Shown piece by piece: positions 2,811 to 64,000 of a stretch of 64,000 nucleotides of DNA; the stretch's first letter is position 1; each line of letters begins with the position of its first letter. A program made the translations under genes and the position numbers. Origin of the DNA: Myxococcota bacterium (lineage in GTDB: Bacteria > Myxococcota > B64-G9); NCBI GenBank assembly GCA_022710975.1, contig JAKLGA010000009.1, positions 45,083 through 109,082 on the forward strand, read 5' to 3'. The notes under the pieces are model-generated. The model was not told where the DNA came from. It saw only the letters and a program-made list of their open reading frames with translations, and searched no databases.

Positions 2811-2823
2811 GCGCGATCCCTCC

Positions 2824-3981: not shown

Positions 3982-3985
3982 GGGC

Positions 3986-6517
3986 TCACTCTCCGCCCGG
4001 CGCCAGGGTCAGCACGCCGCGGGCGCGCTTGCCGAGCTCGCGCCAGTCCGAGAGCATGGGCACGTACTCCCCCCGCAGCCAGCGGGCGTGCTGGTCGGCG
4101 TAGTGGGGCGAGCCGGGCCAGCCCGAGGCGCCGGTGTCCAGGATCCACAGGCTGCGGCCGAGGTCGTTCAGGTCCGCCAGCATGCGGTGCACCGGCCCGG
4201 CCACCACCTTGTAGGGGTCGCGGCCGTCGCCGATGTCGAAGTGGGCCTTCCACACCGTGTCCAGCGCGCCCGGCATGGGCTGGCGGGGCAGGTTGACCAG
4301 CTCGGCCAGGGCCGCCTTGCCGCCGAAGGGGTGGCGCAGCTCGAGGTAGTGCACCCGGCCCCAGGCCCAGCCCGCGGGCGCCGGGCCGAGCCGCTCGCCC
4401 AGCTCGGCCACCGTCTTCTGGAAGGCCGCCTGCACCACCTCGCGCCGGGTCTCGCGCCGCGGGGTCGACAGATCGTCCCAGACCGGGTGCTCGGGCTCGA
4501 AGAACCACACGTCCATCATGTGGGTCGAGTAGCGCTGCTGCAGCACGAACTCGCGCTGGGCCTCGGGCAGCTCGTCGCTCAGGGCGGCCAGGCCGGCCTG
4601 GCGGTAGGTCTCGAAGAAGAGGGTCGGGGCCGCGGCCTCGGACCTGGCCTCGAGGTCCCAGGCGATCAGCAACCCCAGGGCCTCGTCCTCGGCCTCGCTG
4701 CGCGGGGTGAGGGCCAGGAGGTCCTCCAGCAGGCAGGGCAGCACGCGCTCGGCGCGCTTCACCTTCACGTCGCGCTGGATGCGGGCGAAGGTGCTGAGGT
4801 CGTGCTTCGGGGTGGCGCGCAGCAACTCGACGATGCGATCCAGGCGGTAGGAGGGTGCGCTGTCGACGTGGAAGGGCACGGTCGCCCGCGCGGGATCCCA
4901 GAGCAGGTTGTTGGCGTGGCCCACCAGGGCGTCGGCGCCGCCGGTGAGCGCGGGCAGCTCCTCCGGCGCGGCGAAGCGCTTCCACTGGTAGTCGTCCAGC
5001 CAGCCCGGGGCCGGGAAGGTGCCCAGGTGCCGCTCGCGCACGGGGATGCGCCCGCAGGCGAACAGCTCCACCCCGCCCTGCGCGTCGGCGGCGGTGTACA
5101 CGCTGGAGGGCGCGGCCACCCCGGCCAGCAGGGCGCGCAGCTCCGCGGCGCTCTTGGCCGACTGGCTGCGCCGCAGGCGCGCCAGGCTGTCCACCATGGA
5201 GCCCGGGTCCTGGTGCAGGGCCACGAGCGGGGCGCCCTGCGGCAGCTTGCCCGGGTACACGTCCTGGAGGATCGGCCCGTTGCGGCTGGCGCGCAGGACG
5301 AACTTGCGCGGCTGGAGCTCGTCGCCGTCCCGCACCAGGATCTCCACCTCGCGCCGGGCGAGCGGCTGGAAGCCCGCGGGGGTCTGCACCCGGCCCGGGT
5401 CGGCCGGATCGACGGACTCGAGGTAGAAGTCGACCACGTCCGCCACGGCCGAGGTCATGCCCCAGGCCACCTGCTGGTTGTGCCCGATCAGCACGTAGGG
5501 CAGGCCGGGCACGCTGATGCCGATCACGTCGAACTCCGGGCAGGCGAGCTGCATCTGCATCATCATCGAGGGCAGGAGGTGCGACAGGTGCGGGTCGCTG
5601 GCGAGCAGCGGCTTGCCCGAGCGGGTGCGGGCCCCGCCCACGGCGAAGGCGTTGCTGCCCAGTCCGAAGGCGCCGGGGGAGGGGAGCCAGGCGGCGTGCT
5701 CCGCCGGGCGCGGGTCCGCCGCGGGCGGCAGGGCGCCCGGGCCCGTGGGCAGGAGCGCGCGCACCTCCGGCGCGACGGCCGGCGGCAACGCCCGGAGCTC
5801 GCCCGTGAGCGGTACGCTCACCCCGCCGTCCCAGGGGCGCGAGGGGTACAGGGCCTCGGCCCGGTCCGGGCCCTGGTGCAGCGCGATCATCAGGCGCGAC
5901 AGCTCCTGGGACCAGTTGTGGGTCACGCTCCAGGCCGTCAGCCGGCCCACGGCGAACGTGTCGGACGGCCGCCAGGGCTCGGGCGTGAGGCCCAGCAGGC
6001 GGTGCTCCAGGGGCGTCTGGTGGGCCAGGGCCGCGTTCACCCCGTCGGCGTATGCCTGGAGCAGCGCGCCCGCCTCCTCGTCCACCGCGGCCGCGTCCGC
6101 CTCGGCCGCCTCGTCGAGGCCCCAGCCGCGCATGGCCAGGTCGAACTCCACCGTGGTGCTGCCGAGCAGCGGCTGCTCGCCGACCAGCGCGCTCACCCGG
6201 CCGCGGGCGATGCGCCGGATCATGTCCATCTCGAAGAAGCGTTCGCGGGCCTGCACGTAGCCGGTGGCCCGCGCCAGGTCGCGCTCGCTCCTGGCCCGCA
6301 CGTGCGGCACGCCCTGGGGATCGAGCAGCACCTCCACCGGCGCCTCCAGGCCCGGCAGGCGCAGCGTCTCGGTGTCCGGGCGCGGGTAGTCGGGGCTCAT
6401 CTGGTAGCCCAGGAAGGCGGACAGGGCGCAGCTCGCGGACCCGAGCGAGGCCAGGCCCAGCAGGGCCGAGGCGGCGAGCAGGCGGAGCGAGCGCGTGGCG
6501 CGTGCGGTCGGGGACAT
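3986..6517 (-). CDS. penicillin acylase family Ntn-hydrolase (acyl-homoserine-lactone acylase-like), secreted
   Basis: 843 aa. N-terminal signal peptide (LLAASALLGLASLGSASC). Internal GSNAFAVGG motif typical of the beta-subunit N-terminal Ser nucleophile of penicillin/AHL acylases. Length typical of the family. Confidence 0.85.
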   Translation of the reverse strand: MSPTARATRSLRLLAASALLGLASLGSASCALSAFLGYQMSPDYPRPDTETLRLPGLEAPVEVLLDPQGVPHVRARSERDLARATGYVQARERFFEMDMIRRIARGRVSALVGEQPLLGSTTVEFDLAMRGWGLDEAAEADAAAVDEEAGALLQAYADGVNAALAHQTPLEHRLLGLTPEPWRPSDTFAVGRLTAWSVTHNWSQELSRLMIALHQGPDRAEALYPSRPWDGGVSVPLTGELRALPPAVAPEVRALLPTGPGALPPAADPRPAEHAAWLPSPGAFGLGSNAFAVGGARTRSGKPLLASDPHLSHLLPSMMMQMQLACPEFDVIGISVPGLPYVLIGHNQQVAWGMTSAVADVVDFYLESVDPADPGRVQTPAGFQPLARREVEILVRDGDELQPRKFVLRASRNGPILQDVYPGKLPQGAPLVALHQDPGSMVDSLARLRRSQSAKSAAELRALLAGVAAPSSVYTAADAQGGVELFACGRIPVRERHLGTFPAPGWLDDYQWKRFAAPEELPALTGGADALVGHANNLLWDPARATVPFHVDSAPSYRLDRIVELLRATPKHDLSTFARIQRDVKVKRAERVLPCLLEDLLALTPRSEAEDEALGLLIAWDLEARSEAAAPTLFFETYRQAGLAALSDELPEAQREFVLQQRYSTHMMDVWFFEPEHPVWDDLSTPRRETRREVVQAAFQKTVAELGERLGPAPAGWAWGRVHYLELRHPFGGKAALAELVNLPRQPMPGALDTVWKAHFDIGDGRDPYKVVAGPVHRMLADLNDLGRSLWILDTGASGWPGSPHYADQHARWLRGEYVPMLSDWRELGKRARGVLTLAPGGE

Positions 6518-14338: not shown

Positions 14339-15748
14339 TCAGGGGTCGCGGTCCTGCCGCGCGCCGAGCAGCCGGCCGGCGAGCGCCACCACGGCCTGGG
14401 CGTGCCCGCCCCGTGACAGCACCTCGTCGAGCGCGTCGGCCACCCGCTCGATGGCCTGGGCGGTCACGGTCAGGGGCGGGGTGAGCTTGAGGGTCGGCAG
14501 GTCGCAGGCGCCCACCTGGGTGACGATGTGGTGGTCGGCCAGCAGGCCCAGGGACACGTGCTGGGCGAACATGCCGGCGGTCAGATCGCCGAGCTTGCCC
14601 CACAGCCCCCGGCCGAGCAGCCCGCCCGTGGCGTCGTGGAAGCGGATGCCCTGCAGGAGCCCCCGGCCGCGCACCTCGCTCACGGTCGAGGGGTGCCTGG
14701 CGGCCAACGCGGCCAGCCGGGCGGAGAGCTCGGCCCCGCGCGCCCGGGCGTTCTCGACCAGGCCCTCGTCCCGGAGCACCCGCAGCGTCTCGTGCAGCGC
14801 GGCCATGGCCAGCGGTCCCCCGGAGAAGGTGGTCTTGTGGTCGAGCGCGTGGCGCATCGCCCCGTAGGCCTGCGCGTGCACCTCGCTGCGGACGACCAGC
14901 GCGCCCACGGGCATCAGCCCGCCGCCCAGCGCCTTGGCGGTCGCCAGCGCGTCGGGCACCAGCCCGGGCTCGTGCTCGAAGGCCCACATGCGGCCCGTGC
15001 GCCCCAGGCCGCACTGCACCTCGTCCACGATGAGCAGCGCGCCGTGCTCGCGGCACAGCCGGGCGGCTTCCGCCAGGTACCCCTCGGGCTGGGGGCGGCA
15101 GCCGCCCTCGCCCTGGACGGGCTCCACCACCAGGGCGGCCACGTCGCGCTTCCCGAGCGCCCGCGCGAGCACGCTGCGATCCCCGAACTGGAGGAGCTCG
15201 AGGCCGGGCAGCAGTGGCCCGAAGCGTTCGCGTCGGGCGGGTGCGTCCAGGAGCCCGAGCACGCCCAGGGTGGTGCCGTGGAAAGAGCGCCGGATGCCCA
15301 GGATCCTCCGCCGGCCCGTGGCCGCCCGGGCCAGCTTGAGGGCCGCCTCCATGGCCTCGGAGCCGCTCGAGCAGAAGAACACCTTGTCGAGCCCGGCCGG
15401 GAGGGTGGCCGCCAGGGCCTCGGCCCCGAGCGCGGTCAGGGTCGAGGCCTCGACCTGGGTGAAGCCCGGCGCGCCCGAGTCCAGCATGGCGTGGAGCGCG
15501 GCCCGGACGGCGGGGTGGTTGTGGCCGAGCGCGTGCACCCCGTAGCCCGCGGTGAAGTCCAGGTAGCGCTCGCCGCGCTCGTCCTCGAGCTCGAGCCCCT
15601 CCGCGCGCACGTAGCGCCGGCCGAACCCGGCCAGGTCGAGCAGTTCGGCGAAGCCCGGGTTCACGTGCTGCCTGTACAGCCCCGGCCCCTCGGCCCAGCG
15701 CTCGCGGAGCGCCCTGAGGAGCGCGCTCTCCGGTGCCTGTGTGCTCAT
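14339..15748 (-). CDS. class III (omega) aminotransferase, PLP-dependent
   Basis: 469 aa. LIVDEVQCGLGRTGRMWAFEH and SFHGTT motifs typical of acetylornithine/GABA/putrescine-type aminotransferases. Confidence 0.9.
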   Translation of the reverse strand: MSTQAPESALLRALRERWAEGPGLYRQHVNPGFAELLDLAGFGRRYVRAEGLELEDERGERYLDFTAGYGVHALGHNHPAVRAALHAMLDSGAPGFTQVEASTLTALGAEALAATLPAGLDKVFFCSSGSEAMEAALKLARAATGRRRILGIRRSFHGTTLGVLGLLDAPARRERFGPLLPGLELLQFGDRSVLARALGKRDVAALVVEPVQGEGGCRPQPEGYLAEAARLCREHGALLIVDEVQCGLGRTGRMWAFEHEPGLVPDALATAKALGGGLMPVGALVVRSEVHAQAYGAMRHALDHKTTFSGGPLAMAALHETLRVLRDEGLVENARARGAELSARLAALAARHPSTVSEVRGRGLLQGIRFHDATGGLLGRGLWGKLGDLTAGMFAQHVSLGLLADHHIVTQVGACDLPTLKLTPPLTVTAQAIERVADALDEVLSRGGHAQAVVALAGRLLGARQDRDP

Positions 15749-33856: not shown

Positions 33857-35257
33857 TCATCCGCGAGCAGGCGCGAGCTGCTCGACGCCAGGCGAGGCGT
33901 CACCGGAGCAGTCGCAGGGCAGCAACGACTTGGTCGTGAGCCGCCCGGCCCCGCCGCCGCCGCCGCCGCCGCCCACGTAGGGGTGGAAGTCGCAGTCGTT
34001 CGTGTCGTAGGACTGGCCGTCGCCACCGGGCAGGCCATCCACGGAGCCCTCACCCCCGTCCCCACCCTCGATGTTGCCCACCAGCGCGCAACCCGCGCCA
34101 TCCCGGCCCGCGCCGCCCGCGGCCGCCTGGCCAGGGCTCGCGGCTGCTCCGTCCCCGCCGGCCGAGCCCTCGGTGTTCCCGCCGCCGCCGCCGCCGCCAC
34201 CGTCGGCCGTCATCCGTCCGCTCATCACCACCTGCTCGGCCTCCAGCAGGACCGCGCCGCCCGAGCCCCCGCCCGCGCCCCCGAGGCAGGTGCCGTCCTC
34301 GTCGGGGCCGCCGCCGAGGCCGCCCGCGCCGCTGGCGAGGATCGCGCCGCTCACCTCGACCCGCGTCCGGGCGGAGAGCTGCAGGCCCCCGCCGCCCCCT
34401 CCGCCGGCCTTGCCGCCGCAGCCCGGCTGGCCGGTCTGGCCGCCCAGCAGCGGGGACAGGCGCGCGTCGCCTCGCGCGGCCGGGCCGTTCGAGCCTCCCC
34501 GGCTGCCGAACGAGCCTCCGAAGCCGCCGTACCAGGAGTTGGCCTCGGGCCCGGGGCCCTCCGCGCCGGGGCCCGGTTCGTCCCCGCGCCCCGAGAGCTC
34601 CAGCGTACCGCCGACGGTGATGCTGCGCTCGGCCAGCACGGCGAGCGCGTTCGGGCCCGTCACCCGGAGGCTGGCCGGGACGGTCAGCTCGTCCAGCCGG
34701 CACACGCACACCCCGGGGCCTCCCGCCTGGACGACCACCTGGCAGTCGCCGAGCGACGAACCCGCCGAGCACTGGGTCCCGGTGTCGAACTCGCCCGAGG
34801 CGCTGCGGGTGAGGCCCGTGGCCTGGAAGCCGCCCAGGACCGCGGCGTTCGTGGGCACGAGCTGGCAGCAGGCGTCGCCGCAGCAGCCGTAGGCCCCGCA
34901 GTCGCCCGGGCAGTTGTCCGGCACGCACTCGAGACCGGTCGGGGCGGGGGAGTAGCCGGCCGCGCACTCGCAGTAGGGCTGCTCGTCGGCGTCCAGCCGG
35001 CAGCGCCCGTGGCCGGAGCAGGTCTCGCCCGTGCAGGCCGTCTGGTTGGCCAGCTCGCACCCCAGCCCGTCCTGGCTGGGCACGTAGCCTGCGTCGCAGG
35101 TGCAGCTGGCCTGCCCGGCCTCCACGCTGCACGCGCCGTGGCCCGAGCAGGTCACCTCCGCGCAGGCGTCCTGCCCGTTTCCGCCGCCGCCGCAGGCCGC
35201 CGCCAGGCAGGCCAGGGCGAGGCTCAAGCCGGACCTTGCCACCGCGAGCTCGTGCAT
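33857..35257 (-). CDS. secreted lipoprotein with EGF-like Cys-rich repeats and a Gly-rich C-terminal region
   Basis: Lipobox LACLAAACGG. Repeated CxGHGxC...CxCxxGY modules. Long Gly-rich stretches (GGGGGGGNTEG). Confidence 0.6.
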   Translation of the reverse strand: MHELAVARSGLSLALACLAAACGGGGNGQDACAEVTCSGHGACSVEAGQASCTCDAGYVPSQDGLGCELANQTACTGETCSGHGRCRLDADEQPYCECAAGYSPAPTGLECVPDNCPGDCGAYGCCGDACCQLVPTNAAVLGGFQATGLTRSASGEFDTGTQCSAGSSLGDCQVVVQAGGPGVCVCRLDELTVPASLRVTGPNALAVLAERSITVGGTLELSGRGDEPGPGAEGPGPEANSWYGGFGGSFGSRGGSNGPAARGDARLSPLLGGQTGQPGCGGKAGGGGGGGLQLSARTRVEVSGAILASGAGGLGGGPDEDGTCLGGAGGGSGGAVLLEAEQVVMSGRMTADGGGGGGGGNTEGSAGGDGAAASPGQAAAGGAGRDGAGCALVGNIEGGDGGEGSVDGLPGGDGQSYDTNDCDFHPYVGGGGGGGGAGRLTTKSLLPCDCSGDASPGVEQLAPARG

Positions 35258-41365: not shown

Positions 41366-41392
41366 GCCTCGACTGGCGCAAGGGGAGCTCGC

Positions 41393-42535
41393 ATGAAACG
41401 CATCGGTGTGCTGGGCTGTGGGCTGGTCGGGGCGACCATCGCCCGGGATCTGTCGGAGGACGGCCGCTACCGCGTGACCGCGGCCGATCGCGACACGCGC
41501 CGGCTGGAGGGGCTCGCGCGCCGCGACCTGCTCGAGCCCGCCCAGGCCGATCTGGGCTCGCCCGAGGCGGTGGCCCGCTTCATCGCCCCGTTCGACGTGG
41601 TGGTGGGCGCCCTGCCCAGCCGCTTCGGGTTCCAGACGCTGCGGACGGTGCTCGAGGCGCGGAAGCCCTACTGCGACATCTCCTTCATGCCGGAGGGCGC
41701 GCTCGCGCTGGACGGGCTGGCCCGTGAGCGCGGGGTGTGCGCGGTGGTCGACTGCGGGGTGGCCCCGGGGCTGGCGAACCTGCTGATCGGCCACGCCCAC
41801 GCCCTGTTCGAGCGCACCGACTCGGCCGTCTTCTACGTGGGCGGGCTGCCGCGGGTCAGGCGCTGGCCCTGGGAGTACAAGGCGCCCTTCGCCCCGGCGG
41901 ACGTGCTGGAGGAGTACACCCGCCCCGCCCGCATGAAGGTCGGCGGCCGCGTGGTGGCGCTGCCCGCGCTGAGCGAGCCCGAGCTCGTCGACATCCCCCA
42001 GGTCGGGCACCTGGAGGCCTTCAACACCGACGGGCTGCGCAGCCTGCTCGAGACCATCGACGCGCCCGAGCTGCGCGAGAAGACCATGCGCTACCCGGGG
42101 CACGCCGCGCTGATGCGGGCGTTGCGCGACAGCGGCTTCCTCGACCCGGCCCCGGTCGAGGTGGGCGGGGTGAAGGTCAGCCCGCTGGCGCTCAGCTCGA
42201 AGCTGCTGTTCGAGAGCTGGCGGCTGCTGCCGGGCGAGCCCGAGTTCACCTCGCTGCGGGTGATCGTGGAGGGCCTCCGGGCGGGCGCCCGGGAGCGGCG
42301 CACCTACGAGCTGTTCGACGAGACGGACGCGGCGCGCGGGGAGAGCTCCATGGCCCGCACCACGGGCTTCCCCTGCGCGCTGGTGGCCCGGCTGCTGGCC
42401 GAGGGCGAGCTGGCCGCGCCCGGGGTGCTGCCGCCCGAGCTGCTGGCCACGCGCCCCGGGCTGTACGAGCGCATCCTGGCGGGCCTGCGCGAGCGCGGGG
42501 TGGAGGTCAGCGAGCGGATCGAGGCGCTGGCCTGA
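41393..42535 (+). CDS. saccharopine dehydrogenase-like NAD(P)-binding oxidoreductase
   Basis: 380 aa. N-terminal Rossmann motif MKRIGVLGCGLVGATIARDL. Family-typical size. Confidence 0.8.
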   Translation: MKRIGVLGCGLVGATIARDLSEDGRYRVTAADRDTRRLEGLARRDLLEPAQADLGSPEAVARFIAPFDVVVGALPSRFGFQTLRTVLEARKPYCDISFMPEGALALDGLARERGVCAVVDCGVAPGLANLLIGHAHALFERTDSAVFYVGGLPRVRRWPWEYKAPFAPADVLEEYTRPARMKVGGRVVALPALSEPELVDIPQVGHLEAFNTDGLRSLLETIDAPELREKTMRYPGHAALMRALRDSGFLDPAPVEVGGVKVSPLALSSKLLFESWRLLPGEPEFTSLRVIVEGLRAGARERRTYELFDETDAARGESSMARTTGFPCALVARLLAEGELAAPGVLPPELLATRPGLYERILAGLRERGVEVSERIEALA

Positions 42536-42564
42536 GGTCTCGAGGCCGGGCCGACCGCCTGCCC

Positions 42565-44673
42565 TCAGTAGAGGATGTCGAACAGGTTCGAGAAGCCGTC
42601 GGTCCAGGGGGCGAGCGTGAGATCCGCGTCCGGCGCCCCCGGCCGCTTGACCTCGGGCGCGAGCTCCGGGCGGGCCAGCAGCTCCTCGTTGCGGGTCATC
42701 AGCATCCAGGCCGCGCCCCAGGTGTGGCCCTGCTCGGTGTGCTCCCGGAAGACGCGCGGCAACCCGAGCTGCTCGGCCTGGCGGGCCGCCAGGCGGACGA
42801 GGTCGAGGTTCGCGTTGGACAGGTGGACCGCCAGCACGCCGCCCTGGCGGAGGTGCGCGAGGTAGAGCTGGAAGGCCTCCAGGGTGAGCAGGTGCACCGG
42901 CGGCGAGGCGGAGCTGAAGGCGTCGATGACCAGCACGTCCAGCTGGCCGAGGTCGCCGGCCGCGCGCTCCCGCTCCAAGACCAGCCGGGCGTCCCCCAGG
43001 CGGATGTCCCAGCCAGCCCGGGTGTCCCTCAGGTAGCTGAAGAACCCGCCCTCGCCCCGGGCCCAGGCGGCCACCTGCGGGTTCAGCTCGTACAGCCGGA
43101 GCACGTCCCCGGCAAGGCCGTACGCGGCGATGGTGCCCACCCCCATGCCCACCACGCCGATGCGCAGGGGCTGGCCGGACAGGCGCCTGGGGTGCAGGCG
43201 GATCGCGTCCGCGAGCAGGCTGCCCGGGCCGAAGGCGGTGGCCGGGTAAGGCCGGTCGTGCACGTACTGGCCACCGTGCACCACCGAGCCGTGCAGCATG
43301 ACCAGGTGCTCGTCGGGCGTGCCCTGCTCGCGGGCTTCGACCCGCAACACGCCGTAGAAGTTGCGGGCGGTGGCCAGCGCGTCGCGCCCGTGGTCCCTCA
43401 CCTGGAGCCCCAGGGTGACCGCCAAGGCCAGCGCCCACACCGGGGCCGCCACCATGGCCGGCCGGGCCCCCCGCCGGTGGGCCTCCGGGCCGGCGCCGGC
43501 CCGCGCCCAGGCGAGCAGCGCCAGCAGCGCCACCGCCACCAGGGCCACGTGCAGCTCGAAGAAGCCGGAGAACAGGAGCGGCGCCGCCAGGGCGCAGAAC
43601 AGGCCGCCCACCGCGCCGCCCGCGGACAGGCACAGGTAGAAGGCCGTGAGCCGCCGCGGGTGGGGTTTCAGGCGCACCAGCTCCCCGTGGCACAGCATGC
43701 AGCCGGTGAACAGGGCGGCCGACAGCACCGCCAGGATGGCCGCCGGGGTGGCCTCGGCGCCGGTGTACAGCAGCCAGGCCGTGGCCAGGGCCGCCAGCGC
43801 GTAGGCCGGGCCGAACACCACCCGCCGGTACCAGCGCTCGGAGTCGAAGGCCAGGATGAAGGTCAGCAGGTACAGGGTGAGCGGCAGCACCCACAGGAAG
43901 GGCACCACGGCCACCTCCTGCGAGAGCTGGTTGGTGACCGCGACCAGCAGCGTGGAGGCGGCCGCCGGCAGGAGCAGCCACATGCCGACGCGCGTCGCCC
44001 CGAGCGGCTCCGGCGCCTCCTCCGGCGCTCCCGGCCGCGGCGCGTCCGGCCGCGGGGCGGGTGCCTGGCCGCGGGCCAGGCGCCAGCCGAGGGCCACCAG
44101 GCCCACGGTCAGGAGCCCGAACAGCGCGGCCCAGACCCAGGCCTGGGCGGCCAGCGGCAGGCTGGGCTCGACCCCGAAGGGATAGCTGAGCAGCGCCAGC
44201 AGCGAGCCCGCGTTGGACAGCACGTACAGGCGGTAGGGCGTGGCCCGCGGCCGGTCGCTGTGCAACCAGGACTGCAGCAGCGGGCTCAGGGCCGAGAGCG
44301 CCAGGTAGGGCAGGCCGGCCCCCAGCCCGAGCAGCAGGATGAGCCAGCCGAGCGGCCACGTGTCCGCCGTGGGCCGGAGGGCGGGCCCGGGCAGCAGCGG
44401 CGCCTGCCACAGCGCGGCCTGGGCCACGAGCGCCGCCAGCGCGAGCGCGCACAGCGCCCCCTGGGCCAGGGCCTGGCCCCGCGGCCGCAGCCGGGTCGAG
44501 AGCAGGTGGGCCCAGGCGTAGCCGCCCAGCAGCAGGAGCTGGAAGAACAGCAGGCAGGCGGTCCACACCGCGGGCGTGCCGCCGAACCAGGGCAGCAGGT
44601 GCTTGCCCAGGATGGGCTGGATCTGGAACAGCAGGAAGGCCCCCAGGAAGGTGGCCAGGGCGTAGAGGGCCAT
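42565..44673 (-). CDS. polytopic membrane protein fused to a spermidine/spermine synthase-like domain
   Basis: 702 aa from MALYALATFLGAFLLF. About 10 TM segments followed by a methyltransferase-fold domain (GVVGMGVGTIAAYGL...VLVIDAFSS). The 5' 1100 codons of track ORF 42565..48009 are rejected. Confidence 0.8.
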   Translation of the reverse strand: MALYALATFLGAFLLFQIQPILGKHLLPWFGGTPAVWTACLLFFQLLLLGGYAWAHLLSTRLRPRGQALAQGALCALALAALVAQAALWQAPLLPGPALRPTADTWPLGWLILLLGLGAGLPYLALSALSPLLQSWLHSDRPRATPYRLYVLSNAGSLLALLSYPFGVEPSLPLAAQAWVWAALFGLLTVGLVALGWRLARGQAPAPRPDAPRPGAPEEAPEPLGATRVGMWLLLPAAASTLLVAVTNQLSQEVAVVPFLWVLPLTLYLLTFILAFDSERWYRRVVFGPAYALAALATAWLLYTGAEATPAAILAVLSAALFTGCMLCHGELVRLKPHPRRLTAFYLCLSAGGAVGGLFCALAAPLLFSGFFELHVALVAVALLALLAWARAGAGPEAHRRGARPAMVAAPVWALALAVTLGLQVRDHGRDALATARNFYGVLRVEAREQGTPDEHLVMLHGSVVHGGQYVHDRPYPATAFGPGSLLADAIRLHPRRLSGQPLRIGVVGMGVGTIAAYGLAGDVLRLYELNPQVAAWARGEGGFFSYLRDTRAGWDIRLGDARLVLERERAAGDLGQLDVLVIDAFSSASPPVHLLTLEAFQLYLAHLRQGGVLAVHLSNANLDLVRLAARQAEQLGLPRVFREHTEQGHTWGAAWMLMTRNEELLARPELAPEVKRPGAPDADLTLAPWTDGFSNLFDILY

Positions 44674-44717
44674 GCCGTCTCCTACCACGCCTGCCCGCGG
44701 CGGGGCAATCGGGGGGC

Positions 44718-45920
44718 TCAGGCGGTGGGCGGACCCGCCAGGGCGGCCTGGGTGGCGCGGCGGAAGACGACCAGCGGGAGCGCCAGGAGCAACGTCAGCA
44801 CGCCGCTCGTCCACAGCGGCAGGCCGTAACCGCAGGCCTCGCCCAGCGGCCCGAAGACGAGCGAGCCGACCACGAAGCCCAGCATGGTGCAGGTGTTGAT
44901 GAAGCCGGTGTTGCCGCCCAGGCGCTCCAGGGCGAACAGCCGGGCGATCCCGAAGTACATGACGATCAGCATGATGCCGTCGCCCAGCCCGTGCAGCGCC
45001 CGGAAGGAGACGCTCAGCGCCACCGGCTCGAAGACCATGCCCACGTGGCCCAGGCCCGAGGCCAGCAGGCCCAGCACCGCCAGGCGCCGCAGGTGCGGCA
45101 GGTCGCAGGCGCGCCGGCCGGCCCACAGGACCGCCGGGATGATGGCCGCGTACTCGACCGCCAGGTACCAGCCGATGCCCTCCAGGCCGAGGCCGAGGTC
45201 CACCCGCAGGAACAGGCCGTAGGAGGTGGTCTCCGCGCCCCAGTGGAGCGTGAACAGGAACAGCCACAGGGCGAACAGCAGCACCCGCCGATCTCCGAGA
45301 TCGGCCCGGTAGTCCTGCAGGCGCACGCGCGCCACCCGCGTGGGTGGCAACGCCAGGGCCAGGCCCGCGAGCAGCGCGGACAGCCCGGCCACGGCGAACA
45401 TCGTCCAGGTGAAGTCCAGCCGCGCCAGCAGGTAGCCGGTGGCCACGGTGCCCACCGCCAGCAGGCCGTAGCGCAGCGACTGGTACAGGCCCAGCCGGGC
45501 GCCGGTGCGCTCGCCGCAGTCGGTCTTCAGCACCTGCACGTCCAGGCTCAGCTTGAACACCCAGTTCGACAGGCTGTAGACCACGAACACCAGCAAAAAC
45601 AGCGGGTAGGCCCGGGCCGCGCCCATGCCCCACAGCCCGAGCGCCTGCCCCAGCAGCCCCACGCCCACCAGGGTCCGGCTGGTCAGCCGGTCGTTGCCCA
45701 GCCCCGCCGGCAGCGCCGCCAGCACGCCCATCGCCGCCTGGAGGGCGTACAGCAGCCCGATCTGGAGGCCGCTGAAGCCCAGCCCGTCCTTCAGGTGGAG
45801 GGTGAGGAAGAAACCGGCCACGGAGGTGGCCACCAGCACCAGCCCGGCCAGCAGGCCGGGCAGCCAGTCCGCGCGCAGCGGGTGGGAGACCGTCGCGGGC
45901 GTGGCGGGGGAGGGGTCCAT
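44718..45920 (-). CDS. MFS transporter
   Basis: 400 aa, about 12 hydrophobic segments. Directly upstream of and co-directional with the membrane-fused spermidine synthase-like gene. Confidence 0.75.
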   Translation of the reverse strand: MDPSPATPATVSHPLRADWLPGLLAGLVLVATSVAGFFLTLHLKDGLGFSGLQIGLLYALQAAMGVLAALPAGLGNDRLTSRTLVGVGLLGQALGLWGMGAARAYPLFLLVFVVYSLSNWVFKLSLDVQVLKTDCGERTGARLGLYQSLRYGLLAVGTVATGYLLARLDFTWTMFAVAGLSALLAGLALALPPTRVARVRLQDYRADLGDRRVLLFALWLFLFTLHWGAETTSYGLFLRVDLGLGLEGIGWYLAVEYAAIIPAVLWAGRRACDLPHLRRLAVLGLLASGLGHVGMVFEPVALSVSFRALHGLGDGIMLIVMYFGIARLFALERLGGNTGFINTCTMLGFVVGSLVFGPLGEACGYGLPLWTSGVLTLLLALPLVVFRRATQAALAGPPTA

Positions 45921-45994
45921 GCGCGCGGATCTCTACCCCGCCAGGGTCGGCTTGGCAAGCCGCTGGCGGGGTTTGCGCGCCGGCCGGGTTGCTG

Positions 45995-46003
45995 GTACAA
46001 GGG
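45995..46003 (+). promoter_or_regulatory. extended -10-like element TGGTACAAG upstream of ettA
   Basis: About 21 nt upstream of ATG 46024, with GAGGAGG Shine-Dalgarno in between. Same TGGTACAA core as upstream of the lipoprotein paralogs. Confidence 0.3.
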
Positions 46004-46023
46004 ACCCCCGCGAGGAGGTCCGC

Positions 46024-47709
<1,686 letters not shown>

Positions 47710-47721
47710 CGGAGGAGCGCC

Positions 47722-47964
47722 ATGGCGAACAAGGAATGCGACAGAGAGATCTCGGACAGCACCGCGACGATCAAGCTGCCGGTCGAGCTGCTGATGGCCC
47801 TGTCCGCGGACGGGGACGCCAGCAGGGCGTTCGACTGCCTGGAGGCCGCCGACCAGCGCGAGTACATCGACTGGGTCGGCGCGGCCCGGAAGCCCGAGTC
47901 CCGCGCCGAGCGGGCCGCCCAGGCCGTGCAGATGCTGCGGCAGGGCGACGGCAAGAAGAAGTAG
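47722..47964 (+). CDS. YdeI/OmpD-associated (OmdA-like) small protein
   Basis: 80 aa. C-terminal REYIDWVGAARKPESRAERAAQAVQMLRQG resembles the OmdA domain signature. Confidence 0.55.
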   Translation: MANKECDREISDSTATIKLPVELLMALSADGDASRAFDCLEAADQREYIDWVGAARKPESRAERAAQAVQMLRQGDGKKK

Positions 47965-47993
47965 GGCCACCGCGCCCCCACGAGGAGGTTCGC

Positions 47994-48911
47994 ATGTCCA
48001 GGCTGCCACGCCTGCTGGGCCTGTTCGCCCTGGCGCTCTGGGCCGGGGCCTGCTGCGCGCCCGCCCAGGCCGTGCGCGCGGAGCCCGCCTTCCAGCCCGT
48101 GCCCGGCTTCCCGGACGAGGTGAACCAGCGCCTGGCCCGCTTCCTGGAGGAGACCCGGGCCGAGCCCGGCCGCAAGGTGGCGGTGTTCGACGGGGACGGC
48201 ACGGTGTTCGGCCAGGCGCCGCACTACCTGGCGGACGAGTGCCTGTACCTGCACGCCCAGGCCCACCCCGACAGGAAACCCGAGCTCATCCAGGCGATGA
48301 GCAAGCAGGTCAACGTGTCCATCCCCTACGTCCAGGACCGCGTGCGCTACCTGGCCGGCCTGAGCCTGGTGGAGCTCCGCCAGCTCGGCGTGCGCTGCTT
48401 CCGGGAGCACTACGCGGACAAGTTCTACCCTCCCATGCGCGCGCTGGTCGATCTCCTCCAGGCCCACGGCTTCGAGGTGTGGGTGGTGACCGGTTCGCCC
48501 GAGGCGCTCTACCAGCAGTTCATCGCCGAGGGGCTCGGCATCCCCCCGCTGCGGGTGGTGGGGGTCAAGTCGATCATCCGCGGCGGCGTGGTCACCGACG
48601 AGATCGTGCCGCCCGTGCCCCAGGACGCCGGCAAGCTCCAGGCCATCGAGACCTTCATCCAGGAGAGGCCGCTGCTGGTGGGCGGCAACAGCCGCGGCGA
48701 TCGCGAGATGATCGAGCACAGCCGGGGCCTGAAGCTGATCGTCAACCCCGACGAGCACGTCGAGGTGGGCTCGACCGAGAGCATCGCCGAGGTGGCCCGG
48801 CGCGAGGGCTGGCTCACGGTGCGCATCCGCGACGTGCCCGCACCCGACTTCCCCTGGGTGACCTCCAGGGTCTACGGGGTGCGCGTCAACAAGACCCACG
48901 AGGGGCCGTGA
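47994..48911 (+). CDS. HAD-superfamily hydrolase (phosphatase-like), secreted
   Basis: 305 aa from [19 protein letters not shown] (signal peptide). HAD motif [18 protein letters not shown] Shine-Dalgarno upstream. Only the 3' part of track ORF 44991..48911 is real. Confidence 0.75.
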
Positions 48912-50271: not shown

Positions 50272-50307
50272 CAGAAAGAACCCTATTAGGGTGGGGGAAC
50301 GGGCCCT

Positions 50308-50316
50308 TGGTACAAT
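50308..50316 (+). promoter_or_regulatory. extended -10 TGGTACAAT, 6 nt upstream of ATG (predicted leaderless transcript)
   Basis: TGGTACAAT GGTGCC ATG. The same module is repeated upstream of the paralog at 51338. Confidence 0.4.
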
Positions 50317-50322
50317 GGTGCC

Positions 50323-51201
50323 ATGGTGATTCGCCACCTTTGGATGGGGCTCGTGCTGGGGCTCGGCCTCCTGGGCATGGGTTGCACGGAGGGTCAGGTT
50401 GGCTCTGGCGACAGCGGGTCGAGCAAGTCGAGCGTAGACGCCGGTGGCCCTCTTGCCAGTAGACACCCGCACCGAGACCTTGAACATGGAGATCTGCATC
50501 TGCAGATTCTTCATGCCTACAATGACGAATTCTCCGACCTGAAGCCATGGATTGGAACTCTGGATCAAGCCCTGGTGGCTGATCCCAACAACCGTGACCT
50601 GCAGCGGATCCGAAAGGCAGTCTGCGCTGAAGCCGATGAAAGAGCCATCCGTGACCAGTGCCTGGTCGAGTTCGATCTCGAACACTGGCAGGCTGCCTGC
50701 GATTGCTTCAAGAGGCTCTCCTGCACTCACAGAACGCCCAATGTCGGAGCCGAGGTCGCACTGTGTGTCCATCGCCAAGCCGAGCCTCTGAACTCCGGTG
50801 AGCTTGGCCTGGCACAGAGGTCCATCGAGCGGATGTACCCCGAGCCGGCGCTTTCAGCCGCGGTGAAGGGATACAGCGAGGGCAAGGTGCGGACATCGCT
50901 GCGGGAGCTGAATACCTTCATGCAGAGAACGACGGACGAAGCTCTGAGACAGAAGGCCATCACGCTTGGGATCCACATGCGCATAGTGAAGGGCTACTAC
51001 GACTCGGACCCGCTCGAATTGATATTCGGTGGTGAAGGTGCAAGCTGCTCGAGGATGGGGTGGTGCCCTTGCTTGAGGTTTGAAGCCCTCCAGGCGCTTG
51101 ATGCTGATGCGATGATCATGCCGTGGTGGGTCACATCCTTTTTCCATGAGGATATCGACAACAGGCTTCGAGAGTGCAGAGAGCGATGCGGGGGACGTTG
51201 A
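50323..51201 (+). CDS. hypothetical lipoprotein, paralog A (lower-GC islet)
   Basis: 292 aa. Lipobox LGLLGMGC. Shares the N-terminus MVIRH(L/V)WMGLVLGLG and a WQAA(C/Y)DCF(K/R)(R/K)L motif with the adjacent paralog. Local GC clearly below the window average. Confidence 0.6.
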   Translation: MVIRHLWMGLVLGLGLLGMGCTEGQVGSGDSGSSKSSVDAGGPLASRHPHRDLEHGDLHLQILHAYNDEFSDLKPWIGTLDQALVADPNNRDLQRIRKAVCAEADERAIRDQCLVEFDLEHWQAACDCFKRLSCTHRTPNVGAEVALCVHRQAEPLNSGELGLAQRSIERMYPEPALSAAVKGYSEGKVRTSLRELNTFMQRTTDEALRQKAITLGIHMRIVKGYYDSDPLELIFGGEGASCSRMGWCPCLRFEALQALDADAMIMPWWVTSFFHEDIDNRLRECRERCGGR

Positions 51202-51321
51202 AGCGCCCTCCGTCTGTCGAAGAAGGCGATCGCCCGTTTCTGTGGAAATCTGGGAGCCACTAATGGGTTACCCCAGTCCTGACCCCGGTCCGAATTCCTA
51301 TTGGGGTGAGGGACCTGGCGC

Positions 51322-51330
51322 TTGGTACAA
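51322..51330 (+). promoter_or_regulatory. extended -10 TGGTACAAT, 7 nt upstream of ATG (predicted leaderless transcript)
   Basis: TGGTACAAT GGGGCC ATG. About 100 bp around it is roughly 85% identical to the region at 50284-50390. Confidence 0.4.
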
Positions 51331-51337
51331 TGGGGCC

Positions 51338-52012
51338 ATGGTGATCCGCCACGTGTGGATGGGGCTGGTGCTGGGCCTGGGTGTCCTCGGCCTGAGCTGT
51401 AGTGACCCGGACCGGGGCCCGCTCGGTAGCGAGGTGAGTCCAGTGGCCGCGGACTCTGGTGAGCTACCAGGCAGGGGAGACTCTGACGCGCACATGGTCC
51501 TGCACCGCTATGCCTGGGATCTTGTCGGCAGCTCCACGGACCTCGAGGTCTCGGCGGTGGAGGAAGCTGTCAGGGAAGGTTGCCTTCACATTGGCGCCAG
51601 GTGCAATCTGCCGTTTTTTAGCGATTGTAGAGCCCGCAACTGCGCCGAAGAATCTGATTTCGTATTCTATGTCGCCTGCCTGGGCCTGTTCGCGAATGAT
51701 CGATGGCAGGCGGCCTACGATTGTTTCAGGAAGCTGCCCGCGGAGGGCTGTTTCGCGAGGATCGCCAAGGACAAGATCGCCCGGTGCGTCGAGCAGCTCA
51801 CCAAGTTCCACCGCGCCGAGAGCCTGGCCTACGAGCAGGCGGGGCGGCTCTGGAAGGCTCTGGAGCACGAGTTGACCCTGTTCGAGCTCCACCCCTGCGA
51901 CCCGGAGATCTACGCACGGCTGCGCGGCCTGGAGCAGAGGGTCGAGGTGCCCGCGGGGCGCGAACGGCCGCGCATCGCCTGGGACCAGGCCGCCTGCGGC
52001 AACCCGCCCTGA
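51338..52012 (+). CDS. hypothetical lipoprotein, paralog B (lower-GC islet)
   Basis: 224 aa from MVIRHVWMGLVLGLGVLGLSC. Only the 3' part of track ORF 51146..52012 is used. Shares N-terminus and central motif with paralog A. Confidence 0.6.
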   Translation: MVIRHVWMGLVLGLGVLGLSCSDPDRGPLGSEVSPVAADSGELPGRGDSDAHMVLHRYAWDLVGSSTDLEVSAVEEAVREGCLHIGARCNLPFFSDCRARNCAEESDFVFYVACLGLFANDRWQAAYDCFRKLPAEGCFARIAKDKIARCVEQLTKFHRAESLAYEQAGRLWKALEHELTLFELHPCDPEIYARLRGLEQRVEVPAGRERPRIAWDQAACGNPP

Positions 52013-60062: not shown

Positions 60063-63000
60063 TCAATAGCGCTGGAACCGGACCGTGTAGCTCTGGCAGA
60101 GGTTGTTCTGGCCGGTGGCCGGCTTCACGCACACGTAGAAGGTGTTGGAGTTGCCGGTCTGGCAGCTGAAACCGCCGCCCGGCAGGGAGTAGCAGGTGGT
60201 CTGGAAGGGCGGCACGCTGTCGACGCACTCCTGGGTCGAGCAGTTCCCTCGCCACACGTTGAGCCTCAGGTTGCCCGGATCCGGGCTGAAGGTGACCTGC
60301 AGGGTGCCGGCGCCCGGGCTCGGCTGGTTGTAGGCCAGCACATAGCAGTCGTTGTCCTCGCGCAGCCCGGTCTTGTAGACCAGCACCCCCGGCCGGTCGA
60401 CGATCATGCTGCCCGGACCGATGGTGCCCACGTTGTAGGGGCTGTTGGCGCAGGTGTCGCCCACGTCGCTGGTGTCGATGCACTCGCAGCCGTTCGGGTT
60501 CAGCCCGTCGACGTTCCAGGTACCGGCGTTGCAGGACTGCACCACGCAGGCGCTCGACACGCAGGCCTCGGTGGCGTTGGGGAGGTTGCAGACGTTGCCG
60601 CAGAAGCCGCAGTGGTTCACGCTGACGGTGACGTCGGTCTCGCACCCGTTGACCGGGTTGCTGTCGCACGAGTCCCAGCCGGTGTCACAGGATGGGCTGC
60701 ACACGCTGCCGAAGCAGGTCGTGGTGCCGTGGGGGTTGCTGCAGACGGTGGCGCAGCTCCCGCAGTGGCCCACGTCGTTGGTGGTGTTGATCTCGCAGCC
60801 GTTGGCCCGGTTCGAGTCGCAGGTGTCGAACCCCGGGCTGCAGCTGGCGAAGTCGCAGGAGCCCGCGTTGCAGTAGGTGCCCGTCGCGTTCACCACCTGG
60901 GTGGTGCAGTTGATCCGACCGGCGCAGGTGGTGCCGCAGGCGCTGACCGCGTTGAGGTCGGCCTCGCAGCCGTTCGGCCGGCTGCCGTCGCAGTCGCCGT
61001 AGCCGCCGACGCAGGCGCCGTAGTCGCACACGCCCCCCAGGCACGTCTGGCCGGTCGCGTGCTGGGTGGTCGCGTTGCAGTTCACCCGGCTGGCGCAGGT
61101 CCCGCCGCAGCCGTCGACCAGCCAGATGTTGGTCTCGCAGCCGTTGGCGGCGTTGCCGTCGCAGTCCCCCCAGCCGTTGAGGCACGCGGTGTAGCCGCAG
61201 GTGCCGTTGCCGCAGGTGATGCCCGAGGCGTGCAGCACCGTGAGGTTGCAGTTGACCCGGGCGCCGCAGCTCGGGCCGCAGGAGGCCACCTGCCAGATGT
61301 TGGTCTCGCAGCCGTTGGCCTCGTTCGCGTCGCAGTCGCCGAAGCTCGGGTTGCAGGTGGTGTAGTCGCAGGCGCCGCCGTTGCAGGACTTGCCGCTGGC
61401 GTTCTGCACCTCGCTGTTGCAGTCCACCCGGTTCAGGCAGGTCGTGCCGCAGGAGTTGGTCTGCCAGATGTTCAGCTCGCAGCCGTTGGCGCGGTTCGAG
61501 TCGCAGTTGCCGAAGCCTCCGTCGCAGGTGGTGTAGTCGCAGGCGCCGCTGGCGCAGGTCTCACCCGAGGCGTTCAGCACCTGGGTGGTGCAGTTGACCC
61601 GGTTCAGGCAGGTGGTGCCGCAGGAGCTGGTCTGCCAGATGTTCAGCTCGCAGCCGTTGGCGCGGTTCGCGTCGCAGCTGTCGTACCCGGGGTCGCACAG
61701 GCCGAAGTCGCACACGCCGCTCGCGCAGGTCTCGCCCGAGGCGTGCTGCACCTGGAGGGTGCAGTCGACCCGGCCCGCGCAGGCCAGCCCGCAGGCGCCG
61801 GGCAGCCACAGGTCGGTCTCGCAGCCGTTGGTGGGGTCGCCGTCGCAGTCGCCCCAGCCCGGGCTGCAGCTGGTGTAGCCGCAGGCGCCGCCGGTGCAGG
61901 TGAGCCCGGTGGCGTGTTGCACCTGGGTGCCGCAGTTGACGCGGGTGGCGCAGGTCGAGCCGCAGGAGGCCACCTGCCAGATGTTCACCTCGCAGCCGTT
62001 GGTGCGGTTCGCGTCGCAGTCGCCGAAGCCTGCGTTGCAGGTGGTGTAGTTGCAGGCGCCGCTGGCGCAGCTCTTGCCGGTGGCGTTCTGCACCTCGCTG
62101 TTGCAGTCCAGGCGGCTCCCGCAGGTGGTGCCGCAGGAGTTGGTCTGCCAGATGTTGGCCTCGCAGCCGTTGGTGCGGTTCGAGTCGCAGCTGTCGAAGC
62201 CCGGGTCGCAGGCGCTGAAGTCGCACAGGCCGCTGGCGCAGCTCTCGCCCGAGGCGTTCAGCACCTGGGTGCTGCAGTTGACCCGGGTCGCGCAGCTCGG
62301 ACCGCAGGAGGTGAGCTGCCAGATGCTGGCCTCGCAGCCGTTGGTGCGATCTGCGTCGCAGTCGCCGAAGCTCGCGTCGCAGGTGGTGTAGTTGCAGGCG
62401 CCGGACGAGCAGCTCTCGCCCGAGGCGTTCAGCACCTGGGTGTTGCAGTTGACCCGGTTGCCGCAGGCGGTCCCGCAGGCCGCGGTCTGCCACAGGTTGG
62501 CCTCGCAGCCGTTGGTGCGGTTGCCCTCGCAGTCGCCGAAGCCGGTGTTGCAGGACAGGTACTCGCACAGGCCGCTGGCGCAGGAGGGGCCGACCGCGTT
62601 CAGCACCTGGGTGCTGCAGTTGACCCGGCCGGCGCAGGTCAGGCCGCAGGAGGTGGTCTGCCAGATGTTGGCCTCGCAGCCGTTCGGCCGGCTCGCGTCG
62701 CAGTCGCCGAAGCCCGAGTCGCAGCTAGGGCTGCACAGGCCGACGAGGCACTCGTTCGTGCCGTGCACGGCCAGGCAGGTGGTGGCGCAGTCGCCGCAGT
62801 GGGTCTCGTCCGAGGCCGTGTTGGTCTCGCAGCCCGGGCTGGGGGTGCAGTCGCCCCAGTCCGGGTTGCAGCTCAGCACCTGGCAGCTGCCCGAGGCGCA
62901 GGTCGCGGTGGCGTTGGGCAGGCTGCAGCCGGTGTTGCAGGCGGCGCAGTGCACCATGGTGTTGAGCTGCTGCTCGCAGCCGTTGGAGCGATCGTTGTCG

Positions 63001-64000
63001 CAGCTGCCGAAGCCCGAGACGCACTGGTTGAAGTCGCACGCGCCGCTGGCGCAGGCGGTGCCGGTGGCGTGCAGCACCTGGGTGGTGCAGTCGACCCGGC
63101 CCGCGCAGGTCAGGCCGCAGGAGGTGGTCTGCCAGATGTTGGCCTCGCAGCCGGTGGGGACGAGCCCGTCGCAGTTGCCCCAGCCCTGCTCGCACCCGTC
63201 CAGCGCGCAGCCCGCGGGTGCGCAGTGCTCGCTGGCGTGGTCGAGCGCGCAGATCACGCCACAGCCGCCGCAGTTCGCCTCGTCGCCGGTGAGATCCACG
63301 CAGCTCTGGCCGCAGCAGGCCAGCGGCAGCTGGCAGTCGAGCGCGCCGCCGCCGCAGCGGCACAGGCCGTTGAGGCAGCCCTCGTTCGGGTCGCACAGCG
63401 TGTCGCAGTCGCCGCAGTGCTGCTCCTCGGTCAGGGGATCGAAGCAGCTCGCGCCGCAGCAGATCTCCTGCGCGCTGCAGTCGGCGCCGGTGCCGCCGCA
63501 GGCGCAGCCGCCGTCCTCGCAGCTCTCGCCCGCCTGGCAGGCGGTGGCGCAGTCGCCGCAGTGCTCCTCGTCGCTGAGCGGATCGATGCAGTCGATGCCG
63601 CAGCACAGCTGCAGCGCGTTGCAGTCCGGGCCGACGCCGCCGCACAGGCACAGGCCGTCCGTGCAGGACTCGGCCGGATCGGAGCAGGGCAGCCCGCAGC
63701 CGCCGCAGTTCGCCTCGTCGATGTCGGTGTTGGTCTCGCAGCCGTTGGGCTCCAGGCCGTCGCAGTCGATGAAGGGCGGGGCGCACTCGCCCGGAGTGCA
63801 CACCCCCGCCACGCACAGGGCCGGCGCGTTGGGGAAGGTGCACACGTTCCCGCAGCCGTTGCAGTTCTCGGGGTCCGCCTCGAGGTTCCGCTCGCAGCCG
63901 TTGACGTCCTGGCCATCGCAGTCGTCCCAGGGCGCCTCGCACTGGAGCACCCGGCAGGCGCTGGCGACGCACTCGGCGCTGGCGTGGAACAGGCTGCAGA
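60063..64000 (-). CDS. giant secreted Cys-rich repeat protein (5' end outside window)
   Basis: More than 1310 codons. Frame stays open from the track start (63950) to the window edge. At least 13 tandem copies of a 56-aa, 8-Cys module (NGCExNIWQTxSCGxTCxxRVxCxTQVxNAxGxxCxxGxCxYxxCxxGFGDCDxNR). N-terminal 48-aa Cys/Gly modules. Non-repetitive beta-rich C-terminal domain of about 225 aa. Confidence 0.8.
60740..63190 (-). repeat. in-frame tandem coding repeats, period 168 bp (56 codons), at least 13 copies
   Basis: For example GGTCTGCCAGATGTTCAGCTCGCAGCCGTTGGCGCGGTTCG recurs at 61461 and 61629 (plus strand), 168 bp apart. Copies are divergent, not identical. Confidence 0.8.
63236..63668 (-). 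repeat. second repeat class in the same gene: about 48-codon Cys/Gly-rich modules, 3 copies
   Basis: [88 protein letters not shown] and [44 protein letters not shown]. Coordinates approximate. Confidence 0.5.

Follow-up and report, generated by a model that had tools for sequence, protein, structure and literature searches.

Does a gene that carries the name of a spermidine synthase take part in polyamine synthesis? This question is raised by a 64,000-nucleotide (nt) stretch (the window) of a Myxococcota bacterium (assembly GCA_022710975.1, contig JAKLGA010000009.1), in which two adjacent minus-strand genes code for a transporter of the major facilitator superfamily (MFS) and for a 702-residue protein that joins a polytopic membrane domain to a C-terminal domain resembling spermidine synthases. 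The original prediction proposed that the pair makes or modifies a polyamine-like compound at the membrane. The analysis described here leads to a different reading, in which the motifs of the C-terminal domain appear to fit a methyltransferase better than a polyamine synthase. The features of the fused protein on which this reading depends are the following:

42565..44673, minus strand: gene of the 702-residue fused protein (third-position GC periodicity, translation, match to NF037959, exact match to HOX45490.1), with its stop codon at 42565-42567
43498..44673, minus strand: 12-helix MFS-fold domain, residues 1-392 (six helices, cytoplasmic loop 202-225, six helices)
43381..43467, minus strand: predicted 13th transmembrane (TM) helix, residues 403-431 (29 residues, best 19-residue hydropathy 1.88)
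42568..43380, minus strand: transferase domain of spermidine synthase fold (seven beta-strands), residues 432-702
43132..43149, minus strand: motif I, GMGVGT, residues 509-514, with Val512 at the position of the Asp of SpeE GGGDG (hhalign column mapping)
42904..42924, minus strand: motif post-II, DAFSSAS, residues 584-590, with Asp584 invariant and Ala589 in place of the family Asp

An AlphaFold2 model of the protein, built on 40 homologues (predicted local distance difference test, pLDDT, 90; predicted template modelling score, pTM, 0.91), is composed, in this order, of six helices, a disordered basic and proline-rich loop (202-225), six more helices, the helix at 403-431 and an alpha/beta domain (432-702). 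In Foldseek searches of the Protein Data Bank (PDB), the C-terminal part of the model matches spermidine synthases and aminopropyltransferases (3anx, 3gjy, 1xj5, 2o05; E about 1e-5) and the N-terminal part matches MFS transporters (6zgs, 4iu9, MCT1, NarK; E about 1e-4). The catalytic domain contains the beta-hairpin N-terminal domain and the Rossmann-like core that define the spermidine synthase fold, which is the same, including the hairpin region, in SpeE, the Thermus thermophilus enzyme (1UIR/3ANX) and human spermidine synthase (2O05), and the N-terminal domain shows the two six-helix bundles, separated by a cytoplasmic loop, of MFS proteins. The "about 10" TM helices that had been counted are thus replaced, according to the model, by a 12-helix MFS fold to which a 13th TM helix is added. 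Of the two genes, the first codes for an MFS protein and the second for a fusion of an MFS domain with an enzyme.

The catalytic domain was compared with Escherichia coli SpeE (sequence from MG1655) by profile-profile alignment (hhalign), in which both align with 86% probability; the hidden Markov model of the domain gave no significant match to the SpeE sequence, and only the profile-profile comparison aligned them. In this alignment GMGVGT (509-514) maps on GGGDGA of SpeE, Glu529 (in YELNP) on the ribose-binding Glu of VEID, Gly560-Asp561 on the adenine-contacting Asp, and Asp584 and Ser587 on the first and second Asp, respectively, of DCTDP. Residues G509, G511, G513, D561 and D584 are invariant in 40 aligned relatives (about 45% identity), and position 529 is Glu in 37 and Asp in 3 of them. 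Near-invariance at this level of identity points to strong constraint on both the cofactor site and the catalytic Asp, and this bears on the idea that the protein is mainly an MFS transporter, whose spermidine-synthase-fold domain would bind a ligand or regulate without catalysing a reaction (a pseudoenzyme or "transceptor"). In favour of it are the complete MFS fold, with invariant polar residues within its helices, and the loss of two otherwise conserved pocket residues in the clade of the window protein, but retention of the adenosyl-cofactor residues together with Asp584 is typical of active enzymes, which makes this explanation improbable.

Spermidine synthases need an acidic residue in the GxG(D/E)G motif, which binds the aminopropyl amine of decarboxylated S-adenosylmethionine (dcSAM) and excludes S-adenosylmethionine (SAM) (PMC10349129). 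The fused protein has Val512 at this position, and the same column in 117 homologues contains Val (56), Thr (22), Ile (20), Ala (18) or Ser (1), and an acidic residue in none (0/117). An Ile in place of the acidic residue marked AN4663, a fungal "spermidine synthase family" protein, as an N-terminal histidine methyltransferase (NHMT) (PMC10349129). A further precedent is METTL13, whose C-terminal domain (human MT13-C, PDB 5WCJ; the eEF1A N-terminal methyltransferase) has a spermidine-synthase-like fold but uses SAM, with G503, E524, D551-G552 and D575 contacting the cofactor or needed for activity (PMC6109062). Each of these residues has a conserved counterpart in the fused protein, and METTL13-C is the sole sequence match of the family profile in the PDB (E 0.008), in an alignment that pairs the family motif lvlDaFssd with IMFDVDSKD (D575-VDSKD). 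The METTL13 domain is among the best structure matches as well. METTL13-C is soluble and cytosolic, with about 16% identity, whereas its counterpart in the fused protein is anchored by 13 TM helices. A non-acidic motif I (GGGAC) is likewise seen in 3gjy, which matches best in structure, although this soluble "probable spermidine synthase" of Corynebacterium glutamicum, which comes from structural genomics, is functionally uncharacterised and does not settle the chemistry. The elements expected of a spermidine-synthase-like N-methyltransferase (the fold, a non-acidic motif I, the post-I Glu, the adenine Asp and the post-II Asp) are all found.

The absence of an acidic residue at the position of Val512 throughout the family, together with the METTL13-C match, suggests that the domain is spermidine-synthase-like in fold only. 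The original prediction is therefore retained for the fold of the C-terminal domain and not upheld for its chemistry: by its own terms, loss of the dcSAM- or putrescine-binding residues or a match to a methyltransferase would refute it, and the check found the acidic residue lost and a methyltransferase matched. A true membrane-bound aminopropyltransferase, producing spermidine or another polyamine-like compound from dcSAM and using its own MFS domain (perhaps also the neighbouring MFS protein) to move substrate or product, would agree with SpeE being the closest fold class, with the ribose, adenine and first catalytic residues (Glu529, Asp561, Asp584) that the domain shares with aminopropyltransferases, and with the NCBI name of the protein, a spermidine synthase fusion. 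Unlike those enzymes, however, the protein lacks the GGGDG Asp. Of the two post-II aspartates that serve amine binding and catalysis (D173 and D176 in the human enzyme), the first is present and invariant, and the second aligns with Ser587; most family members have an Asp two residues further on (DAFSSD), which is Ala589 here. In addition, the 702-residue protein does not match Pfam Spermine_synth (PF01564) at E<=0.1 and reaches 17.2 bits, against a cutoff of 304, with the NF003380 polyamine aminopropyltransferase (PRK04457) model. Genes for S-adenosylmethionine decarboxylase (SpeD), arginine or ornithine decarboxylase and agmatinase are absent among the window genes scanned. The neighbouring saccharopine-dehydrogenase-family gene was considered as a carboxynorspermidine synthase and rejected (21 bits against an NCBIfam cutoff of 800); it is convergent with the fused gene and was found beside no other homologue. 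With the pairing with an MFS gene not conserved either, synthesis or modification of a polyamine-like compound by the pair is not supported, and an aminopropyltransferase appears quite improbable.

Genes of amine or amide metabolism do occur elsewhere in the window (1353-6517 and 14339-15748, both minus strand), far from the pair. They encode a class III aminotransferase, a group II pyridoxal-phosphate-dependent decarboxylase, a DUF819 protein and a protein of the penicillin amidase family. They have no link to the fused gene, and polyamine biosynthesis is not a recognised role of any of them.

Loss of the acidic gatekeeper could also be read in another way, since, by general reasoning, it would admit the SAM carboxylate to an aminopropyltransferase-shaped pocket, so that SAM would be used to transfer a group other than methyl (3-amino-3-carboxypropyl, for example) onto a membrane or envelope acceptor. 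Nicotianamine-synthase-like and betaine-lipid enzymes transfer this group from SAM. No search, however, gave any specific similarity to these enzymes, and the closest relative outside the spermidine synthases is a methyltransferase; we consider this option very improbable.

The side of the membrane on which the catalytic domain lies was derived from sequence rules (charge bias and TM parity) applied to the canonical MFS topology. Predicted cytoplasmic loops carry on average 18.7 Lys plus Arg, versus 7.4 on the opposite side, about 4 of these 7.4 being at the very start of the soluble domain. Helix 403-431 contains 19 apolar residues in a row (hydropathy 1.88), and around the last TM helix the mean net charge in 118 homologues is +2.33 in the 12 residues before it and +0.50 in the 12 after it. 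The stretch from the HGE motif, at the end of TM10, to the RNFYG motif, where the soluble domain starts, contains three hydrophobic segments in 92 of these 118 homologues and five in the other 26, but never two or four, which gives 13 or 15 TM helices in total and never 14. The longer homologues (P0022, P0040, P0062 and P0081, among others) contain a two-helix hairpin of 44-55 residues between TM12 and TM13, inserted after the position of residue 398 of the window protein. Odd parity being always kept, the catalytic domain would be opposite the MFS termini, that is, it is probably extracytoplasmic.

The C-terminal extensions present in some family members touch on the same point. They reach 130-330 residues past the catalytic domain and include a TPM domain in P0307 (E 3.4e-8), P0313 and P0282 and TPR repeats in P0311 and P0238, while those of P0185, P0261 and P0252 have no Pfam match. 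TPM domains are often extracytoplasmic, so their presence in some relatives lends weak support to an outward catalytic domain.

The opposite arrangement, an ordinary membrane-anchored methyltransferase facing the cytoplasm, with helix 403-431 not being a true span, has in its favour that SAM is a cytoplasmic compound, that the orientation is deduced by rules and that basic residues directly follow TM13. The 19 consecutive apolar residues of this helix and the strict parity in the 118 homologues are nevertheless hard to explain without a membrane crossing, and we judge a cytoplasmic domain unlikely, while giving it a real chance.

The closest known counterparts of the MFS domain of the fused protein are MFS transporters of the DHA1/SLC18 type (VMAT2, SotB, MdfA, NorA), from which it differs: it has no match to Pfam MFS_1 at E<=0.1 and has motifs of its own (LPWFGGTPAVW, SNxGS, TNQxxQE and CxxCHGE). 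The polar residues that are invariant within its helices are Q19, Q134, S153, N154, E169, H329 and E331. A docking surface on its outer half was also considered and dropped, as conservation is similar on both halves (26% on the outer half against 22%; p 0.43 in Fisher's test). TM10 ends, on its cytoplasmic side, in a CxxCH-like sequence followed by an invariant Glu (CMLCHGE, residues 325-331, about 43690-43710 of the window). His329 and Glu331 do not vary among 40 relatives, and Cys325 and Cys328 are each kept in 37 of them; this motif is possibly a metal or cofactor site rather than a haem-c site.

Putting these elements together, the fused protein is tentatively proposed, at somewhat less than even probability, to be a membrane-integral transferase of spermidine synthase fold that uses SAM to alkylate, most simply to methylate, a nitrogen nucleophile, with its catalytic domain probably outside the cytoplasm. 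It would work as a self-contained unit made of the 12-helix MFS fold, the 13th TM helix and the catalytic domain, the latter using ordinary SAM, not dcSAM, on the extracytoplasmic face. The methyl group would go to an amine or imidazole nitrogen of a protein N-terminus, a lipid head group or another envelope component, by a principle that may be analogous to that of METTL13-C and fungal NHMT, and the MFS domain would serve either to deliver the cofactor to the catalytic domain or to present its acceptor. The upstream MFS gene would be co-transcribed by an accident of gene order and would have no part in the mechanism. The gene structure, the two folds, the motif residues that are kept or lost, the TM parity with its charge bias and the lack of conserved neighbours are observed; which cofactor is used, what reaction takes place, which way the protein faces and what its MFS domain does are inferred.

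The closest parallel in architecture is NHMT (Aspergillus nidulans AN4663), in which seven TM helices are followed by a spermidine-synthase-like methyltransferase domain that methylates His1 of secreted lytic polysaccharide monooxygenases (PMC10349129). In both proteins the membrane domain is polytopic, its helices are odd in number and a spermidine-synthase-fold domain follows it, with a hydrophobic residue replacing the acid of GxG(D/E)G (Ile322 in NHMT, Val512 here). NHMT, too, had been misannotated as a spermidine synthase. It needs its membrane domain for activity, although that domain is a fungus-specific 7TM fold and the one described here is a 12+1 MFS fold. This likeness is drawn from the published description of NHMT.

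Several points weigh against the proposal. The function of every family member is deduced from sequence and models; the acidic-residue rule comes from characterised enzymes and is no proof of methyl transfer; and the orientation depends on topology rules. As given above, the half of the MFS domain predicted to face outward has no excess of invariant residues. We know of no supply of SAM outside the bacterial cytoplasm, and an external SAM-dependent domain would need an unproven route for it. One such route would be that the MFS domain itself moves SAM, or else the acceptor, through the inner membrane and straight to a periplasm-facing methyltransferase domain, which would methylate amines on exported proteins or envelope lipids. 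This is a speculation that we hold with little confidence: to our knowledge, no bacterial SAM-dependent enzyme acts outside the cytoplasm, and a literature search on periplasmic SAM-dependent methylation gave nothing relevant. If it were true, such an extracytoplasmic SAM machine would be the prokaryotic counterpart of NHMT, a fungal enzyme of the endoplasmic reticulum.

A last point against the proposal comes from the window protein's own clade. This clade (the window protein, P0001 and P0002) shows coupled changes at otherwise conserved positions (Tyr480 to Ala, Asp589 to Ala and Ile591 to Pro), together with GLG to GMG at residue 510, and its post-II motif has changed from DAFSSD-x-IP to DAFSSASPP. 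Tyr480 and Asp589 may correspond, judging by motif order, to the acceptor-binding Tyr and the second Asp of spermidine synthases. Both have also been lost, independently, in P0005, and this repeated coupled loss suggests that these residues act together and that the acceptor site has changed in the clade. The acceptor site of the clade may consequently differ from that of the rest of the family, or its members may be less active.

The gene pair and its surroundings are described by these further features:

44718..45920, minus strand: gene of the 400-residue MFS transporter (Pfam MFS_1, E 9e-22)
44674..44717, minus strand: intergenic gap of 44 nt, with GGAGA upstream of the ATG (read in the sequence)
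41366..44717, no strand assigned: segment absent from the syntenic relative described below, with the saccharopine-dehydrogenase-family gene (41393-42535, plus strand) and the fused gene

G+C content of the window is about 75%, so long open reading frames (ORFs) appear in every frame, and true genes were told from artefacts by a codon-position GC plot. Between 42565 and about 44700, GC at third positions reaches about 0.97-1.0, with first-position above second-position GC, the pattern of a minus-strand gene; the frame changes at about 44700, the second minus-strand gene spans 44718-45920, and a plus-strand gene starts at about 46000. The ORF of 1814 residues at 42565..48009 (minus strand) exists as a reading frame but is an artefact of high GC as a gene, and the two co-directional genes with their 44-nt gap agree, in GC periodicity and translation, with what had been described, as does the upstream gene being an MFS transporter. 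The 702-residue protein starts at the ATG at 44673, which GGAGA precedes, and 40 homologues share its start residue. A promoter and terminator scan of 42300-46200 found no terminator-like site in the gap, and both genes are probably co-transcribed.

The neighbouring MFS gene is a chance neighbour and not a conserved partner of the fused gene. The adjacency was found only in L085, whose fused protein is 82% and MFS protein 86% identical to those of the window, which is too close to inform on conserved pairing. A relative of the neighbouring MFS gene is present in none of 80 genome loci that encode a homologue of the fused protein, nor beside the fused gene in L081 or L082-84; the gene upstream of a 60%-identical homologue is unrelated and codes for 503 residues, and a 50%-identical Myxococcota homologue sits amid housekeeping genes. 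Conversely, orthologues of the neighbouring MFS protein at 70% and 57% identity (L087-L091) have no fused gene nearby. The 70% orthologue (L087/L088) lies between EttA (84% identical to that of the window) and an FG-GAP/ASPIC gene (73%), with only 10 nt separating the MFS and FG-GAP/ASPIC genes. The segment of about 3.3 kb at 41366-44717 is missing there, through either an insertion here or a deletion in the relative. The "dedicated transporter" of the original prediction is not borne out by this distribution. A paralogy of the neighbouring MFS protein with the MFS domain of the fused protein was also rejected (hhalign probability 0.04%).

No other recurrent partner appeared among the ORFs clustered within 4 kb at 85 loci, the largest cluster, a histidine-kinase-like protein at no fixed position, being present in 8 of them. 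Among 35 neighbours closely linked on the same strand and scanned against Pfam, no family had more than three members, the top one (3/35) being acyl-CoA dehydrogenases from related Bryobacterales-type loci. In two loci (L080:3107-5974 and L016:8126-9138) a PMT_2 (GT-C glycosyltransferase-like) gene lies within about 30 nt of the fused gene, on the same strand; the related ORF cluster covers 5 loci, which is too rare for a partnership, yet points to the cell envelope.

Both exact proteins are already in NCBI from a Myxococcota metagenome-assembled genome, as "fused MFS/spermidine synthase" (HOX45490.1) and "MFS transporter", and the pair as described agrees with this automatic annotation. The 702-residue protein has no Pfam match at E<=0.1 and passes the curated cutoff of NCBIfam NF037959 ("fused MFS/spermidine synthase") with 46.8 bits against 40. 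Since this alignment is restricted to residues 349-630 (model positions 135-397 of 480) and leaves the first 350 residues or so uncovered, the protein belongs to a divergent branch. It is a member of a family that is already named and uncharacterised: NF037959 is a computational family for which no characterised member was found, and the part in polyamine metabolism that its name suggests goes against the motifs. The family comprises 24,040 representatives (50% identity) with an E cutoff of 1e-3 and 10,058 with one of 1e-30, and at least 594 confirmed loci in species-representative genomes of at least six phyla, among them Myxococcota, Planctomycetota, Acidobacteriota, Chloroflexota, Verrucomicrobiota and some Betaproteobacteria. 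A literature search on membrane-fused or MFS-fused spermidine synthases found nothing about this family, in line with its earlier description as widespread but functionally undefined. Some family members or fragments (P0183, HSA24062.1, and P0059) are called "ferrichrome ABC transporter permease" in NCBI, a name that is probably an error spread from the membrane domain.

Elsewhere in the window, no tRNA genes were found by the scan. In the region 50300-51700, GC shows no periodicity by codon position: it is about 0.45-0.75 at third positions, where genes have about 0.97. The ORFs 50323-51201 and 51146-52012 have no Pfam match, and this region may be non-coding or foreign DNA. Two ORFs weakly match eukaryote-type cysteine-rich modules: a 466-residue protein (33857-35257, minus strand) gives EGF/cEGF matches of 24.5 and 19.8 bits, both under the Pfam cutoffs, and an ORF of about 1295 residues (60063-63950, minus strand) matches a Stig1-like domain.

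The gene pair that drew attention to this locus has no special significance in itself. What is new here concerns the family, whose name is probably wrong on chemistry and whose enzyme domain is probably outside the cytoplasm. Re-reading it as a family of methyltransferases of spermidine synthase fold would keep polyamine biosynthesis from being wrongly inferred when metabolism is annotated at genome scale, and, if the outward orientation is true, it would pose the problem of how the cofactor reaches a catalytic domain outside the bacterial cytoplasm.

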